From an uncultured Chloroflexia bacterium (GTDB lineage Bacteria; Chloroflexota; Ktedonobacteria; Ktedonobacterales; JADMIN01): a DNA stretch of 64,000 nucleotides. Shown one piece after another: positions 3,794-32,684 of the stretch. The stretch is taken from NCBI GenBank assembly GCA_963712005.1, contig CAVQGK010000024.1:728600-792599 (forward strand), in the 5' to 3' direction. The notes under the pieces were generated by a model. It was given only the letters and a program-made list of their open reading frames with translations. It searched no databases and was not told the DNA's origin. Within the stretch, counting starts at the first letter, position 1. Each line of letters starts with the position of its first letter. The translations under genes were made by a program, and so were the position numbers.

Positions 3794-4570
3794 ATGGCAC
3801 AGGATCCCAACATACTGCTGACACAGCAGTATCATGACGCATCACGCCTGACCGCACGTGCTACGCTCCATGCACGTTTCAGCACGAATCCGACACGCTG
3901 GTTTTCCTGGCTTTTCGACCGATTTCAGACGCCCGCGAGCAGCGCTGTGCTCGAACTGGGCTGCGGGCCGGGGTGGCTCTGGCTCTCGAATCGCGAGTGC
4001 ATCCCCGCAGATTGGGATATCACGCTCACCGACTTTTCCGAAGGGATGCTGGCAGAGGCCCGGCAAAATATGGCACATGTGCCCCATGCGTTCACCTTCG
4101 CCGTGGCCGATGTGCAGGCGATTCCCTATCCCGACGAAAGCTTCGATATGGTGATCGCCAACCACATGCTCTATCACGCGCCCGATATCCCCGCCGCGCT
4201 GGCAGAGATTCGCCGTGTCTTGAAGGCTGGCGGGCGCTTTTATGCCTCAACACTCGCTGGCGATTACATGCGGGAACTGGAACGGTTTCTGCCTCGCCGC
4301 AGGCCGCCGCATCTCAGTTTCAATCTCGACAATGGCGCAGAACTGCTCGCGGCGCAGTTTGGCAATGTGACGCTCCATCGCTTTGACAACACGCTGGTCG
4401 TGACCGAGGCCGAGCCACTGATTGCCTACATCATCTCAATGACACCTCAGTCTGCCACCGAACTGCACGAGCATATCCACCGTGACGCCGGGCCGCTTGT
4501 CCAGCGCGCGCGCGATGAGTATGGCGAGGTGCGGCTCACCGCCAACGCCGGTCTCTTCGAGGCGTGGTGA
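3794..4570 (+). CDS. class I SAM-dependent methyltransferase
   Basis: 258 aa, with motif I VLELGCGPGWL and FDMVIANHMLYH. Confidence 0.8.
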   Translation: MAQDPNILLTQQYHDASRLTARATLHARFSTNPTRWFSWLFDRFQTPASSAVLELGCGPGWLWLSNRECIPADWDITLTDFSEGMLAEARQNMAHVPHAFTFAVADVQAIPYPDESFDMVIANHMLYHAPDIPAALAEIRRVLKAGGRFYASTLAGDYMRELERFLPRRRPPHLSFNLDNGAELLAAQFGNVTLHRFDNTLVVTEAEPLIAYIISMTPQSATELHEHIHRDAGPLVQRARDEYGEVRLTANAGLFEAW

Positions 4571-24761: not shown

Positions 24762-27073
24762 GTGTCTGACACGACCGCCGCTTCCGGCGATTTTCTCTCG
24801 CTTGACGAGCTCCAGTTTCCCGAGACACTAGAGTCTACCGAGGTGGCGCGCGTCGTCGCCGTTGAACTGAAACTGAGGCCGACGCAGACACTCGCGACTC
24901 TCACCCTGCTCGACGACGGCAACACCGTCCCATTCATTGCGCGCTACCGCAAGGAAGCGACGGGCAATCTCGACGAGGTGCAGATTCAGGCCATCGGCGA
25001 CCGCGCCGCTGCGTTGCGTGCGCTCCATGCGCGCAAACACGATGTGCTGCGCCTCATCGCCGAGCAGGGGAAGCTCACCCGCGAGTTGGCCGACGCCACC
25101 ATCGCCGCCGCCACGCTGCAAGCCGTGGAAGACCTCTATTTGCCATATCGCCAGAAGCGAAAGACGCGCGCCAGCATGGCACGCGAGCGCGGATTGCAGC
25201 CGCTCGCCGACCTGATTCTGCGGCAGGAGCGCATTCCCGGCCCGGCAGAGCAGGCGCGCATCGCCGCGGCAGAGCCGTTCGTGGATGCCGAGAAAGGGGT
25301 GGATGATGTCGCGTCAGCCCTGGCTGGGGCGCGCGATATCTGCGCCGAGACGATCATGGAGGATGCGACGGTACGCGGCGAGGTGCGCGACACAGTTCTT
25401 CAAAGAGGGTGCGCTGGGGGCGAAACTCACCGTGGATGCGGAGAAAGCGGCGGAGAAAGACCCGCGCGGCGTCTACCGCATGTACTACGAGTTTCACGAG
25501 CCGGTTCCGCGTTTGGTCCCGCACCGCATTCTCGCGCTCAATCGCGCCGAGCGTGAAGATGTGCTGCGCGTCTCGGTGGATGTGCCATTCGAGCGCGCCG
25601 AGCCACTGATTCACAACCACTACCAGCCCGACCGGCGCTCGCCCTTCGCCGAAGAGTTGGAGACCGCCATCAGTGACGGCTACCGCCGCCTGCTCGCGCC
25701 CGCGCTCGAACGTGAGGTGCGCGCCGAGTTGACGCGCCAGGCCGAAGAACACGCCATCGGCGTTTTCGCGACCAATCTGCGTAACTTGCTCTTGCAGCCG
25801 CCGCTCCGTGGCGAGCGTGTGCTCGGCCTCGACCCTGGTTTCCGCACCGGCTGTAAGGTGGCCGTGGTAGACGAAACCGGCAAGCCCATCGACTCCACCA
25901 CCATCTATCCCCACGCGCCCCAGGAGCGCTGGAGCGAGGCGAAGGCGATCCTCAAGGCGCTGATCGCCACCCATCGCGTCGGCGTGATTGCCATTGGCAA
26001 CGGCACCGCCTCGCGCGAGACCGAGCAGCTCGCCGCCGAGGTGATTGCTGAGCTGGAGAAGCTGGGCACGCCCACTGGCTCGCTGGGCTATGTCATGGTC
26101 AACGAGGCGGGCGCATCGGTCTATTCGGCATCCGAGGTGGCCCGGCAGGAGTTTCCCACGAAAGACGCCACCGAACGCGGTACCATCTCGATTGCGCGGC
26201 GGCTGCAAGACCCACTGGCCGAGCTGGTGAAGATCGATCCCAAGGCGATTGGCGTTGGCCTGTATCAGCATGATGTGGATCAGCGCGCGCTGGCGACCGC
26301 CCTGGACCGTATCGTGGACTCCTGCGTGAACTTCGCCGGTGTGGATCTCAACTCCGCCTCCTCGCAACTGCTGCGCCACGTCTCTGGCATCACGACACGC
26401 ATCGCCGACAACATCGTCGCCTGGCGCGCCGAACACGGCTCATTTGCCAGCCGCCAGCAACTGCTCAAGGTCTCTGGCCTCGGTCCCGCCACCTTCGTCC
26501 AGGCGGCAGGCTTCCTGAAGGTACCTGGGGGCAAGGAGCCGCTCGACAACACCTTTATTCACCCCGAGAGCTACGACGCCACGCGCGCAGTGCTGAAGAC
26601 GCTGCCGGGATCGACCACTGAGCGCGCCAGTCGGCCGGGTGCGCGCGTGGCGGATGCTGATCGGCATGAACTCGCGAGGCGCGGGCGCGCAGGCGGCCAT
26701 CGCAGCGCTGGCAGGCGAGGTCAACGTCGGCGTCCCAACGCTGGCCGACATCCTAGAAAACCTGGAAAAGCCGGGACTCGACCCGCGCGATAGCCTGCCG
26801 AAACCGATTCTGCGCCAGGACGTGCTGAAGCTGGAAGACCTGAAAGAGGGGATGGTGCTGCAAGGCACGGTGCGCAATGTCGTCGACTTCGGCGCGTTTG
26901 TGGATATTGGCGTCAAGCAGGATGGCCTCGTGCATGTCTCGGAGATGGCCGACCGCTTTGTCCGCGATCCTCTGACCGTAGTACAGGTTGGGCAGGTCGT
27001 GCAGGTGCGCGTGCTCGCAGTGGATATTGGGCGCGGGCGCGTCCAGTTGAGTATGCGCAATGTTGAAGGCTGA
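24762..27073 (+). pseudogene. tex: Tex (S1-domain transcription accessory protein), 2 frameshifts
   Basis: Three collinear ORFs: 24762..25556 (VPFIARYRKEATGNLDEVQI), 25285..26793 (YqgF/HhH region: GLDPGFRTGCKVAVVD, IAIGNGTASRETE) and 26639..27073 (S1 domain: GTVRNVVDFGAFVDIGVKQDGLVHVSE). The frames switch near 25385-25400 and near 26640-26690. Confidence 0.85.
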
Positions 27074-28569: not shown

Positions 28570-28599
28570 TTGACATCAGCAGCGGACACCGCGTAGACT
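28570..28599 (+). promoter_or_regulatory. sigma-70-type promoter for the T-box leader
   Basis: TTGACA (28570-28575), an 18-nt spacer, then TAGACT (28594-28599). Confidence 0.55.
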
Positions 28600-28605
28600 G
28601 ATGGT

Positions 28606-28965
28606 ACCAATTAAAAAGAGTTCGTCGTGAGGGACGAGTATCCGTGCTACGGCGAGACAGCGAGCCGGGGTAGGTGTAAGCCCGGCAGGCTGGCGCGCGG
28701 AGAAGCCACCCTCAGGCCTAGCGGTGCAATCGCCGCCCGGCCGCGACGCGGGACGAACGCCCACCGTGGCCAGTAGCACCCGCCGGTAGCTCCCCGTTAC
28801 CTAAGAGCAGGGCATCGAGCCATCCGCTCCGTGCCCGGAAAGAGTGGAGAGCAACAGTTGCGCGCTAGCCATGCGCACGCACCGTAGTTCTCAAGCAGGG
28901 TGGTACCACGGGAACCGACTTTTTCGCTCCCGCCCCGAGCAAGGCGCTCGCGGCGGGTGTTTTTT
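28606..28965 (+). promoter_or_regulatory. T-box leader (tRNA-sensing riboswitch), Ala GCC specifier
   Basis: Stem I base TGAGGG 28628-33 pairs with CCCTCA 28709-14. AGTA lies on the 5' side (28637-40). The distal hairpin is GCCGGG-gtaggtgtaag-CCCGGC. The specifier loop reads GAA-GCC-A (GCC at 28705-07). F-box CCGTTA is at 28794-99. The T-box sequence AAGCAGGGTGGTACCACGG is at 28892-28910, with UGGU matching an A73 discriminator. A terminator hairpin plus T7 follows. Confidence 0.85.
28928..28965 (+). terminator. T-box attenuator terminator
   Basis: CCCGCC-CCGAGC, loop, GCTCG-C-GGCGGG, followed by TGTTTTTTT. Confidence 0.8.
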
Positions 28966-29119
28966 TATCTCTGGCCGCATAAGCAATATCTGGCAGCGAG
29001 CGCCCCAGCCTCGCACACTGCGCCTTTCCTGTTGGCAGCCAGTCCGGCGTTTCCCGCCGGACGACGAACTCTGCCCATTTTCATCGCCTGGGTTGGCCCC
29101 AGGGAAGGAGAGCAGTCGC

Positions 29120-30484
29120 ATGAACGATTTCAGTAAGCCGGGACTCTCATCGCCGGAAATCACCCGGCGCTATCTCGCGTATTTCCGCGAGCGCGGTCAC
29201 CTGGCGATCGCGGGCGAGCCACTCACCGCGTCGGAAAGCACCCTGTTCGTGATCGCGGGGATGCAGCCGCTGCTACCATGGCTGCGCGGCCAGACACCAC
29301 CGCCCGCGCCACGCCTGACGGCGATCCAGCGCTGCCTGCGCACGGACGACATGGAAGCCCTCGGAACCAATGGACGCACGCTCAGCAGCTTCAACATGCT
29401 CGGCAACTGGTCCATCGGCGATTACGGCAAACGGGAGGCGATTGGCTTTGCGGACGAGCTGATGAACCTGCTCGGCGTTGATCGCTCGAACGTCTGGGTG
29501 ACGGTCTTTGGCGGGGAACCAGCCTCAGGCCTGCCACCAGACGAGGAGACGGTCGCGGAATGGCGGCGGGTTGGTCAGCCGGAGGAGCGCATTGTGCCAC
29601 TGGGTCCCGTCGACAACTTCTGGACCATGTACGGCCCTGGACCCTGCGGTCCAGATACAGAAATGTTCTTGGATCGCGGCGAGGCGGTGGGCTGTGGTCT
29701 GCCAACCTGCCGTCCGGGCTGCTCGTGCGAGCGCTTCCTGGAGTTCTGGAACCTCGTCTTCATCGAATACGAGTGGCTGCCCGATGGGAGCTACGCGCCC
29801 CTGCCGCTGCGTAGCGTGGATACCGGCATGGGGTTGGAGCGCATCGCGGCGGTGCTCCAGCACAAGATGACACTCTTCGAGACTGACCTGTTCGCGGGCG
29901 CGCACCAGCGTCTGGCGGACCTCGCGCCAGCCGAGGACGATACGCCAGAGCGGCAGCGCGCGCGCCGAGTGATTGTCGACGCGGTACGGTCGGCGCTCTA
30001 CATCAGCCTCGCGGACGTCCTTCCCCGACCGGATGGTCGTGGCTACGTCATCCGGCGGCTGATTCGCCGGGCGGCTCGGCAGGGGCGCATTCTTGGATTA
30101 GAGCGGCCATTCCTCGGCGAGTTGGTATCACCAATAATCGAGCGCGGTGAGGACTTGTTCTCGCCTGACGAGCGCCAGCGCGCGCCATACATTGCAACGT
30201 TGCTGACCGACGAAGAGCGCCGTTTCCAGCATGTGTTGACCACTGGGCTGCGCCTGCTGGATCGGATGAAGCCCGATGCGGGAGGCATCATCTCGGGAGA
30301 GCAGCTGTTCCGGCTGCATGCGGAGCGTGGCTTCCCGGCGGACCTGGCGGCGGAAATTCTCGCCGAACGCGGCATAGCCGTTGACTGGTCCGGCTTCGAG
30401 GCGGCGATGGAGCGCCATCAGACCATCAGCCGGGTCAGCGCGACCACTCGATTCGGCGCGAACGAGCAATTGGTCGGGGAATGA
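29120..30484 (+). CDS. truncated alanine--tRNA ligase (catalytic plus tRNA-recognition domains only, 454 aa)
   Basis: AlaRS motifs FNMLGNWSIGDYGKREAI, FWNLVFIEYE and DTGMGLERIAAVLQ. ATG at 29120 follows GGAAGGAG. The gene ends where bacterial AlaRS normally begins its editing domain. The upstream part of ORF 28844..30484 overlaps the T-box and is not coding. Confidence 0.85.
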   Translation: MNDFSKPGLSSPEITRRYLAYFRERGHLAIAGEPLTASESTLFVIAGMQPLLPWLRGQTPPPAPRLTAIQRCLRTDDMEALGTNGRTLSSFNMLGNWSIGDYGKREAIGFADELMNLLGVDRSNVWVTVFGGEPASGLPPDEETVAEWRRVGQPEERIVPLGPVDNFWTMYGPGPCGPDTEMFLDRGEAVGCGLPTCRPGCSCERFLEFWNLVFIEYEWLPDGSYAPLPLRSVDTGMGLERIAAVLQHKMTLFETDLFAGAHQRLADLAPAEDDTPERQRARRVIVDAVRSALYISLADVLPRPDGRGYVIRRLIRRAARQGRILGLERPFLGELVSPIIERGEDLFSPDERQRAPYIATLLTDEERRFQHVLTTGLRLLDRMKPDAGGIISGEQLFRLHAERGFPADLAAEILAERGIAVDWSGFEAAMERHQTISRVSATTRFGANEQLVGE

Positions 30485-30561: not shown

Positions 30562-31923
30562 TCAGCGACCGGGCATATCGGCGACCGGCGCATCGTTGAA
30601 CTGAAGCGTCATCGAGCCGAGTGGCGGCACGCTCTGCAGCAGCGACTGGCTATTCGCCGGGAGCGAGATGAGACCCATGCGCATCTTCAGCAACAGAATC
30701 CGCTCGACCGACTGATCGATGCGCGCCTTGGTGAGGCTGCCGTTGTTGAGCGCACTCTTGAGCGCCGAGATCATCGCCCGCATCTGCGAGGCATTCCAGG
30801 GACCAAGCAACATATCGCAGCCAGCCTCAACTGCCATGACGCCAGCCTGTGGCATACTCCATTTGTTCGAGATGCCATCCATGTAAAGCGCATCGGTCAT
30901 CACGACACCATTAAAGCCAAGCTCATTGCGCAAGACACCCGTGATGATGTTCGGAGACAACTCCGCAGGCAGCACCGGATCCAGGGCGGGCATCAGCAGG
31001 TCGGTGGTCATCACCATCTGAACCTTCCCGGCATCGATCATTGCGCGGTAGGGCGCCAGCTCCACCGATTCGATCTGATCGCGCGTGCGGTTGATAACTG
31101 GCAGGCTCAGGTGCGCGTCTTCCAGAGCGTCACCCAGTCCAGGGAAGTGCTTCAACGTGCCCACCACGCCGTTATCCTGCAAGCCGTCGAGGTATGCGCC
31201 CGCCATTTTGGTGACGGAGTCGGCTGTCGAGCCATAGGTGCGGCACAGCAGATCCCGGCCATTGACCAGCTTCACATCCACATCGGGAGCAAGGTCAACA
31301 TTGAAGCCGAGGGCCGTCATATCCTGCGCCATCTTGGCGCCCTGCTGATAGGCGTAGGTCGTCGAGCCAGTGGCGCCAATCTGCGGCGCGCCCGGATGGG
31401 GGCCGTAGATTTGTGTCAGCCGGTCAACGCAGCCGCCCTCTTCATCCACCGTCACCAGCAGGGGGATTTTGACATGCGCCTGGGAGGCCGCGATCAACGC
31501 CTGAGTCTGCTTGGCGTCGTGCATACTGAAGGCGTAGAGGATAATGCCGCCTGCGTGCATCTGCTCGATCATCGCCGCATTGTTCGCGTTGAAGTCAGTG
31601 CCGACATACTCGGCAACGAAAAGCTGGCCCAGCTCCTCATCGAGCGACATCTTACTGATGATCTGATCGGCATATTCGGCAATCGTCTGTACGCGCTGGC
31701 GATCATAGTGTCGCGGTATGAGAAGGGTCGAGTTCGTGGATGTAGGGCCGCGCTGATCGGCTTGAGCAAGAATGGCTTTCTCAGTAAGTGCTATAGGAGC
31801 ATTCGATCCGCATGCGTTCATGACAAAGATAATGGCCAGTAAGAATACCGACGCCGCCAGGTGAACGATCTGCATCCGGCCCAAAGGACGCCTGGACTGG
31901 TGTGAAACTGCACCCTGCCCCAT
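30562..31923 (-). CDS. glycoside hydrolase family 3 (NagZ-like beta-N-acetylhexosaminidase) lipoprotein
   Basis: KHFPGLGDA, GFNGVVMTDAL, and lipobox VMNACGSN. Confidence 0.85.
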   Translation of the reverse strand: MGQGAVSHQSRRPLGRMQIVHLAASVFLLAIIFVMNACGSNAPIALTEKAILAQADQRGPTSTNSTLLIPRHYDRQRVQTIAEYADQIISKMSLDEELGQLFVAEYVGTDFNANNAAMIEQMHAGGIILYAFSMHDAKQTQALIAASQAHVKIPLLVTVDEEGGCVDRLTQIYGPHPGAPQIGATGSTTYAYQQGAKMAQDMTALGFNVDLAPDVDVKLVNGRDLLCRTYGSTADSVTKMAGAYLDGLQDNGVVGTLKHFPGLGDALEDAHLSLPVINRTRDQIESVELAPYRAMIDAGKVQMVMTTDLLMPALDPVLPAELSPNIITGVLRNELGFNGVVMTDALYMDGISNKWSMPQAGVMAVEAGCDMLLGPWNASQMRAMISALKSALNNGSLTKARIDQSVERILLLKMRMGLISLPANSQSLLQSVPPLGSMTLQFNDAPVADMPGR

Positions 31924-32321: not shown

Positions 32322-32684
32322 CTAGAAGAGCCGGGCCCCCAGTGGCACATCTGAACGCGGGGCAATCAATACCACCGCGCCCGCATCATCGGCGAGGCCC
32401 AGCGTCAGCACCTCGGAGCGAAAGCCCGCAATCCGACGCGGCGGAAAGTTGACGACCGCCAGCACCAGTTGCCCGATCAACCCCTCCGGCCGGTAGTGCT
32501 CGGTGATCTGCGCGCTCGACTGGCGCACGCCAATTTCCGGGCCAAAGTCTATGCGTAGCGCATAGGCGGGCTTGCGCGCGCCTTTCAACGGCTCCGCCGC
32601 CTCCACGCGCCCGACCCGAATATCCACACGCTGGAACGCCTCAATGTTAATTTCGCCCGGCCTGCTGGCCGCCTCATCCGACAT
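32322..32684 (-). CDS. tRNA-binding (EMAP/CsaA-type OB fold) protein
   Basis: FQRVDIRVGRVEAAEP...LVLAVVNFPPRRIAGFRSEVL. Confidence 0.8.
   Translation of the reverse strand: MSDEAASRPGEINIEAFQRVDIRVGRVEAAEPLKGARKPAYALRIDFGPEIGVRQSSAQITEHYRPEGLIGQLVLAVVNFPPRRIAGFRSEVLTLGLADDAGAVVLIAPRSDVPLGARLF

Follow-up and report, generated by a model that had tools for sequence, protein, structure and literature searches.

Alanyl-tRNA synthetase (AlaRS) is a textbook synthetase with a four-domain prototype, notably including an editing domain, that is conserved throughout cellular life. Editing is conserved because mischarging of tRNA-Ala with serine or glycine is toxic and, to our knowledge, an AlaRS that carries its editing domain in cis is nearly universal among free-living cells. 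The locus described here raises the question of how an AlaRS gene lacking this domain is controlled and what its product may do. The gene lies on the plus strand at 29120..30484 of a 64,000-nt stretch of contig CAVQGK010000024.1 (the whole stretch analysed, hereafter the window) from a soil bacterium of the order Ktedonobacterales (Chloroflexota). An earlier note on this DNA had proposed that an Ala-specific T-box leader controls a stand-alone AlaRS without an editing domain, and sequence comparison supports this proposal. We put a probability of roughly 0.7 on the reading that the gene encodes an auxiliary, editing-free, T-box-induced AlaRS that works beside a canonical alaS and is monocistronic across the Ktedonobacterales.

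The earlier note had read a complete T-box architecture upstream of the gene, and each element that it listed, from the promoter to the terminator, was found in its place. All features given here are on the plus strand. A sigma-70-type promoter, TTGACA-N18-TAGACT (28570..28599), was recognized as a motif of which one copy was found, compared with 0.5 expected in shuffled sequences. It is followed by the complete leader (28613..28966), which was located by a match to the Rfam model RF00230 and comprises Stem I, the Stem II and IIA/B region, Stem III and the antiterminator/terminator. Stem I (28624..28717), as delimited by RNAalifold covariation and unconstrained folds, is closed by the helix TGAGGG/CCCTCA (28628-28633/28709-28714). 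Its 5′ side holds the AGUA S-turn strand (28637-28640); the AG bulge AGCGA (28659-28663) and the distal loop (28670-28680) follow, and the specifier loop GAA-GCC-A (28702-28708) abuts the CCCTCA strand of the closing helix. The specifier codon within this loop is GCC, for alanine (28705..28707). An F-box CCGTTA (28794..28799) lies in the Stem IIA/B pseudoknot region and aligns to the RF00230 consensus CGUUA, and Stem III is visible in the minimum free energy (MFE) fold of the leader. The T-box sequence AGGGTGGTACCACGG (28897..28911; also written AGGGUGGUACCACGG) contains the bulge UGGU, with predicted pairing to A73-C-C-A of the tRNA, and its core GGTGGNACCRCG occurs a single time in the 64 kb, compared with 0.08 expected. 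The antiterminator (28898..28935) consists of helix A1 (GGG/CCC), a 7-nt bulge UGGUACC and helix A2 (CGGGA/UCCCG). Its 3′ strand overlaps the 5′ strand of an intrinsic terminator (28929..28966), in which the hairpin CCCGCC-CGAGC ... GCTCG-GGCGGG (28929-28957) is followed by a run of seven T residues (28960-28966). A ribosome-binding site AAGGAG (29105..29110), read from the sequence, stands 9 nt before the ATG of the gene.

We also compared this leader with those of homologous genes. Of 35 family loci recovered, 20 hold the entire upstream region, and the same architecture is found upstream of all 20 genes; the T-box leader is therefore genuine and beyond chance. Each of the 20 contains exactly one GGUGGNACC core, an F-box CCGUUA with the T-box core 97-150 nt downstream of it, and a GC-rich terminator hairpin followed by a U-run. 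The T-box bulge is UGGU in 19 leaders and UGGC in one. A promoter similar to that of the window, TTGAC-N17-18-TAnAnT, lies 56-62 nt upstream of Stem I in 17/20. The codon GCC is invariant, standing in all 20 leaders directly 5′ of one base (A, G or C) that is followed by the CCCYC closing strand. The remaining bases of the specifier loop vary (GAA-GCC-A, GAAU-GCC-A, GAACA-GCC-G, CAAA-GCC-A), and the layout seen in the window, with its AGUA strand, GAA-codon-purine and closing helix, recurs in 19 leaders. AGCGA and a distal loop of the GGUGNRA type are conserved in both sequence and position. The upper-helix sequences of Stem I are wholly different between lineages, and the MAFFT alignment is poor over the variable middle of this stem. 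RNAalifold analysis of 15 leaders nevertheless revealed double compensatory changes at 8 of the 18 predicted pairs of Stem I, and compensatory changes were present at 6 of 18 pairs of the terminator. In the antiterminator 91.5% of cells were paired over the 15 leaders, compared with at most 59% in slid controls. For 12 of 18 single Stem I sequences, MFE folding without constraints yielded a specifier loop of canonical form.

A specifier register shifted by +1 was considered as well. The codon would then be CCN, always a proline codon, and tRNA-Pro also has A73. We rejected this register because no conserved purine would then separate the codon from the helix, and the invariant G ahead of the codon would be unexplained. 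In addition, the specifier is canonically read as GAA-NNN-purine, and the gene under control of the leader encodes an AlaRS. Two leaders deviate from the common form. One of them (L094, WNFL01016542.1), upstream of a short AlaRS gene, lacks about 80 nt that are present in the near-identical leaders L099 and L101. The deletion takes the −10 region and the 5′ half of Stem I, and may be a natural variant unable to antiterminate or an assembly error. The other (L112, at about 1924-2275) is the leader with the UGGC bulge; it also has C instead of a purine after GCC and a non-consensus −35 sequence, and may monitor a tRNA with another discriminator base or tolerate a mismatch.

What, then, does the leader control? 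The coding sequence starts at ATG 29120, not at the upstream GTG of the mechanical open reading frame (ORF), and encodes a protein of 454 aa. Pfam, alignment and Foldseek agree that it consists of the aminoacylation and tRNA-recognition domains of AlaRS only, as the earlier note had read from the translation. PF01411 (tRNA-synt_2c, the class IIc catalytic core) is matched over positions 1-435 of 552 (E = 1.7e-105), and the class II motifs are present. TIGR00344 (alaS) is matched only over positions 1-437 of 847 with 372.8 bits, below its cut-off of 457.05, and the ‘small-AlaRS’ model NF002436 only over positions 5-442 of 595 with 336.6 bits, compared with a cut-off of 529. The domain search of the window protein found neither PF07973 (tRNA_SAD) nor PF02272 (DHHA1). 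The alignment to E. coli AlaRS-441 (3HXU) is collinear, residues 10-438 of the query corresponding to residues 3-436. An AlphaFold model (predicted local distance difference test score 73, predicted template modelling score 0.76) superimposes only on AlaRS catalytic fragments, with Foldseek template modelling (TM) scores of 0.68-0.73 and about 0.7 to both 3HXU and 1RIQ.

The short protein is a member of a discrete Ktedonobacterales family under purifying selection. The best 120 relatives listed from a collection of 5.8 billion proteins are each 441-485 aa long and, where named, come from Ktedonobacterales. NCBI labels such relatives ‘alanine--tRNA ligase-related protein’, a name under which a coherent enzyme family with its own regulation goes unnoticed. 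An exhaustive search of 1.84 billion representatives at 50% identity placed the family in a single cluster (621 bits). The next match, at 359 bits and 46% identity, is a full-length AlaRS, and no full-length protein with an N-terminal half of this kind was found among the 1.84 billion. For the four closest relatives, the ratio of non-synonymous to synonymous substitution rates (dN/dS) is in the range 0.107-0.155. A complete chromosome of 5.07 Mb (CP126532.1; GCA_030167145.1) carries one member, within positions 1,726,798-1,736,153, and none was found on a plasmid. The concern raised by the earlier note, that the truncation might be an artefact of assembly, is thus dispelled by the uniform length of the relatives, the missing full-length version and the low dN/dS.

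The residues of the active site were compared between 121 short sequences and 102 canonical AlaRS. R69, M92, W170, N212, V214, D235, G237, G239, E241 and R242 (E. coli numbering of the literature) are 98-100% conserved in the short family, N212 and D235 reaching 100%, and all alanine- and ATP-site residues that are at least 90% conserved in canonical enzymes are kept. Absence of key active-site residues, which the earlier note had named as a possible objection, is not what the alignment reveals. In contrast, several residues with 86-98% conservation among canonical AlaRS have been lost from the family, namely H87, E92, F103, N303, Y308, D400 and T401 (E. coli numbering with Met as 1). H87 is replaced by K/T, E92 by H/N/Q, F103 by G, Y308 by S and T401 by E/D. 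N303 and D400 are the readers of the G3:U70 base pair. The former is Asn in 92% of canonical sequences and R (64%), P (12%), H (10%) or A (7%) in the family, with P304 in the window protein; the latter is Asp in 86% of canonical sequences and Ala in 97% of the family, with A401 in the window protein. Since the G3:U70 readers are not conserved, tRNA recognition may be non-canonical. The tRNA-recognition domain is also slightly less acidic and richer in Arg (net charge −1.5 versus −3.9 in canonical enzymes), which is weak evidence. Two other traits, the missing GGKH motif-2 loop and an invariant 4-Cys cluster, were at first sight peculiar to the short form. They were rejected as such because both also occur in full-length AlaRS of Chloroflexota and Thermoleophilia, and 83% of the canonical set lack GGKH.

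The genomic surroundings provide no partner for the short protein. The downstream neighbour of the gene (30562-31923), a glycoside hydrolase of family 3, is convergent, and no editing or C-Ala sequence was found in 229,789 nt around the 35 family members and the window, which bears out the earlier claim that there is no split partner in cis. The neighbourhoods vary, with a Ca/Na antiporter and the glycoside hydrolase in the window, a ribosomal-protein cluster in CP126532.1 and others elsewhere. Because these neighbourhoods are not conserved, the gene appears to be a monocistronic unit outside any operon or biosynthetic cluster. Two genes downstream of the short AlaRS, the window encodes a 120-aa stand-alone tRNA_bind protein (32322-32684, minus strand; PF01588, Trbp111/CsaA-like). 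This gene is also present in the syntenic locus L081. The protein is tempting as a stand-in for the absent elbow-binding C-Ala module, but its gene is not linked to the short AlaRS in L083 and L084.

A neighbour-joining tree of 128 sequences, in which the viral TuAlaRS discussed below was not included, places the short clade as a monophyletic group beside the canonical Chloroflexota clade. Its internal branch is the second longest in the tree (0.127 versus a median of 0.0105), and the tree contains no specific full-length sister to the clade. Three full-length representatives that grouped as ‘sisters’ were rejected as long-branch attraction, because their identity to the window protein is only 29-41% and the canonical residues at the diagnostic positions are mostly or entirely retained in them. 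The nearest relatives outside the family are AlaRS of Chloroflexota and Thermoleophilia with 44-46% identity. The nearest full-length relative (P0121) is from Thermoleophilia, and P0131 and P0133 are from other phyla. A canonical Chloroflexota alaS gene stands in an alaS-ruvX-mltG housekeeping context without a T-box leader. Among the best 120 relatives of one canonical Chloroflexota AlaRS (P0134) none is named Ktedonobacter* and none lies on a contig with a short gene. A contig scan with the family alignment, keyed on the universal motif DTGMGLER, returned only canonical alaS genes of other phyla (L001-L080).

The following mechanism would account for these features. The sigma-70-type promoter would drive a transcription-attenuating T-box leader, in which the GCC specifier and the UGGU bulge together are expected to make the switch specific for tRNA-Ala(GGC) that is uncharged and has A73 as its discriminator. 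In the ground state, the GC-rich terminator would form, so that transcription would end about 150 nt short of the gene. Under a shortage of charged tRNA-Ala, the uncharged tRNA would pair through its anticodon with GCC and through its free NCCA end with the UGGU bulge. The antiterminator would thereby be stabilized, and RNA polymerase could read into the mini-AlaRS gene. The product would then activate alanine and charge tRNA-Ala without proofreading of its own. We believe that it most probably makes Ala-AMP and charges tRNA-Ala, since the alanine and ATP sites are intact. Docking on the acceptor stem probably occurs in a modified way, since the C-Ala elbow-binding module is absent and the G3:U70 readers are replaced. 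An auxiliary copy is favoured by the length of the branch, by the loss of near-universal residues and by contexts that are not those of a housekeeping gene, together with the near-universality of editing in cis among AlaRS. Such a copy would be analogous to thrZ and tyrZ of B. subtilis and ileS2 of Bacillus, which are T-box-silenced second copies induced by uncharged tRNA, e.g. when the main synthetase is limiting or inhibited (PMC2494555; bioRxiv 10.1101/2022.02.09.479832). These paralogues are full-length, whereas the Ktedonobacterales AlaRS is short and would be auxiliary by analogy. A narrower form of the idea is a dedicated AlaRS without proofreading that is expressed only in response to undercharged tRNA-Ala(GGC), uses a non-canonical acceptor-stem mode and is convergent with the mini-AlaRS of a giant virus. 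We offer it tentatively and regard it as rather doubtful in all its parts together. If it held, the enzyme might, like those encoded by thrZ or ileS2, stand in as an emergency copy that is insensitive to inhibitors, or serve as a device that tolerates or exploits replacement of Ala by Ser or Gly through mischarging under alanine limitation.

Several observations weigh against an auxiliary T-box-induced AlaRS. At the gathering score of 93, RF00230 has no match in the window, and the score of every leader is under this threshold. The covariance-model search proposed in the earlier note thus succeeded in part. With permissive filters, positions 28613-28925 of the window matched model positions 1-219 with 39.8 bits (E = 2.6e-7), full-length matches at the same position were obtained in 14 of 17 leaders tested, and 13 homologues scored 34-68.5 bits (E = 3e-4 to 1e-12), all spanning model positions 1-219; the gathering score, on the other hand, was missed. 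That score is a curation threshold, not a structural feature, and the leaders score low because the regions of Stem II and Stem III contain long GC-rich insertions, not because elements are missing. Another unfavourable point is that no tRNA gene, and with it no tRNA-Ala(GGC) with its A73 and its G3:U70, is present in the window or in 29 loci. No full-length Ktedonobacterales AlaRS was found among the matches listed, and coexistence of a canonical alaS with the short gene is presumed. The changes at H87 and E92 of motif 2 and at the G3:U70 readers N303 and D400 make a different substrate or acceptor conceivable. Finally, the earlier note had argued for activity from the E. coli N-terminal 461-aa fragment (N461). 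This fragment binds tRNA poorly and does not rescue a yeast knockout (PMC10036535), and activity is not simply to be presumed from the precedent.

Two loci outside the Ktedonobacterales family bear on the alternatives. At L118 (3001-5654; ENA ERZ21831262 contig_28), beside dnaA and dnaN, alaS is split in cis; a 455-aa gene for the catalytic and tRNA-recognition part is followed 258 nt downstream by a 342-aa tRNA_SAD+DHHA1 gene, and no T-box is present. At L119 (3001-7377; ENA ERZ24794672) a 458-aa AlaRS-like gene, also without a T-box, has three radical-SAM genes directly behind it. This may be a tRNA-dependent biosynthetic cluster, and it is distinct from the Ktedonobacterales family.

The most serious alternative is that these cells have no AlaRS other than the short protein, with editing and perhaps elbow binding supplied in trans by an AlaX-type or tRNA_SAD+DHHA1 protein, as in Nanoarchaeum equitans. 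The T-box would then provide housekeeping feedback, as for alaS of Firmicutes, where T-box control of a sole alaS is normal (PMC4695836). Such an arrangement would explain why the matches listed contain no canonical Ktedonobacterales alaS and why none of the 120 canonical Chloroflexota AlaRS listed lies on the four contigs that carry short genes (5.07, 1.05, 0.99 and 0.74 Mb), and L118 illustrates that split alaS genes do exist. The missing canonical gene, however, rests on the best 120 matches listed and is not evidence of absence. Moreover, the 35 loci contain no partner gene within about 3-4 kb, whereas the split at L118 is in cis, and a long branch with loss of near-universal residues is what one would expect of a paralogue and not of an essential orthologue. 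The rarity among free-living cells of an AlaRS lacking editing in cis further argues in the same direction, and we consider a sole AlaRS unlikely. In its extreme form this alternative would, if true, make the order the first free-living cells without a cis-editing AlaRS.

It is less likely still that the protein is no synthetase at all, and that its Ala-AMP or Ala-tRNA serves to alanylate a natural product, a carrier protein or an envelope component. The precedent is AcmF of Streptomyces ascamycin biosynthesis, an AlaRS-like alanyl transferase with the same two-domain architecture in which activation residues are lost (N219Q and D232E; PMC12945691). The altered G3:U70 readers and motif-2 residues would fit such a role, as would the three radical-SAM genes that adjoin the short AlaRS-like gene at L119. 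N219 and D232 are lost in AcmF, but in the Ktedonobacterales family the conservation of N212, D235 and every other residue of the pocket is 98-100%, and the family has neither conserved neighbours nor biosynthetic genes. L119 is without a T-box, and a T-box that fires on uncharged tRNA-Ala would be the wrong logic for a consumer of Ala-tRNA. There remains the suspicion that nothing real is present, the T-box being a sub-threshold chance match and/or the short ORF an assembly artefact or decaying pseudogene. The missed RF00230 gathering score and indels elsewhere in the window, where a tex gene is spread over three frames, could be cited in its favour. The comparative data already refute this suspicion, which deserves almost no credence. 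The same leader and ORF length recur on at least 20 independent contigs, including a complete chromosome, the RNA helices covary, dN/dS is 0.11-0.16, and no full-length version of the clade exists among the 1.84 billion representatives.

An auxiliary, T-box-induced AlaRS can also be set beside systems already described. T-boxes as such, Ala-specific T-boxes (PMC4695836) and a viral mini-AlaRS (PMC10036535) are already known, and few T-boxes have been described in Chloroflexota (PMC2494555). With the alaS T-box of Firmicutes (Clostridium acetobutylicum, Bacillus subtilis; RF00230) the Ktedonobacterales leader has in common the full class-I architecture, an Ala specifier, the A73-matching UGGU, an AlaRS target gene and an antiterminator that competes with a terminator. 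In contrast to the Firmicutes leader, it is GC-rich with long insertions and reaches 34-68 bits versus the 93 required, its specifier is invariably GCC, and its target is a truncated AlaRS instead of the full-length housekeeping enzyme.

The closest counterpart of the protein is the mini-AlaRS of Tupanvirus (TuAlaRS), which has the same two domains, has lost the G3:U70 readers and yet is active and specific for G3:U70 (PMC10036535). Complete catalytic and tRNA-recognition domains with no editing or C-Ala partner nearby define a mini-AlaRS, and this is what the family in the window possesses. The N/D readers are replaced by P and T in TuAlaRS, by P304 and A401 in the window protein and by R/P/H and A in the family. 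TuAlaRS is viral, derived from eukaryotes and of demonstrated activity, whereas the Ktedonobacterales family is bacterial, riboswitch-controlled, order-wide and known from sequence. The likeness of the two is likely to be convergence, since the family groups with bacterial AlaRS of Chloroflexota and Thermoleophilia. AcmF resembles the family in being bacterial, in having only the aminoacylation and tRNA-recognition domains and in forming its own clade apart from canonical AlaRS; unlike AcmF, the family keeps all ATP- and Ala-activation residues, has no biosynthetic gene cluster and is predicted to be induced by uncharged tRNA. A separate polypeptide with the catalytic module is the common point with split AlaRS (the Nanoarchaeum equitans alpha/beta enzyme and L118), although the tRNA-recognition domain of the window protein is complete and no partner is nearby in the 35 loci. 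The ‘small-AlaRS’ of about 590-600 aa (bioRxiv 10.1101/2023.05.29.542759) lacks C-Ala, as does the window protein, but has catalytic, ATL and editing domains, the last of which is absent here.

We searched full-text literature for a bacterial AlaRS catalytic module that stands alone, for a T-box in control of such a module and for AlaRS paralogues with canonical function retained, and found none described; a 2022 review of duplicated aminoacyl-tRNA synthetases gives no AlaRS example (PMC9437257). A bacterial family of mini-AlaRS that is under riboswitch control and has altered acceptor-stem readers therefore seems to be undescribed. The ‘mini-AlaRS’, so far characterized only in a giant virus, has a look-alike in the Ktedonobacterales, which keeps the alanine-activation site, discards editing, C-Ala and the G3:U70 readers and is wired to a predicted sensor of uncharged tRNA-Ala. 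The family raises the questions of how tRNA-Ala identity is read without the Asn/Asp pair and without C-Ala, whether cells deliberately use an error-prone synthetase under starvation or inhibitor stress, and how T-boxes operate in GC-rich Chloroflexota, where standard Rfam thresholds miss them. No Rfam family reaches its gathering score in the whole 64-kb window and, since tRNA genes are missing as well, the window would be annotated as devoid of structured RNAs. Annotation by gathering score thus under-calls T-boxes outside Firmicutes, and by routine annotation the T-box of the window is missed.

A few minor observations concern other parts of the loci. The gene for a Tex-like transcription accessory protein in the window (24762-27073, plus strand) is broken over three reading frames, with shifts near 25,400 and 26,633, and its homologue in L081 is an intact ORF of 769 aa. 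The breaks are either assembly indels or genuine frameshifts, and the quality of the window sequence is not to be presumed. In L099, a HEARO RNA (HNH endonuclease ORF-associated; RF02033) at 4058-4282 on the plus strand scored 129.4 bits, compared with a gathering score of 83, and lies about 1.6 kb downstream of the short AlaRS gene. Long, near-perfect inverted repeats occur directly after the stop codon of the short AlaRS gene in L084 (5357-5458) and L092 (3777-3860), and about 1.6 kb further downstream in L097 (5306-5379). They match plant and animal microRNA models spuriously on both strands, and may be elements like repetitive extragenic palindromes or bidirectional terminators.

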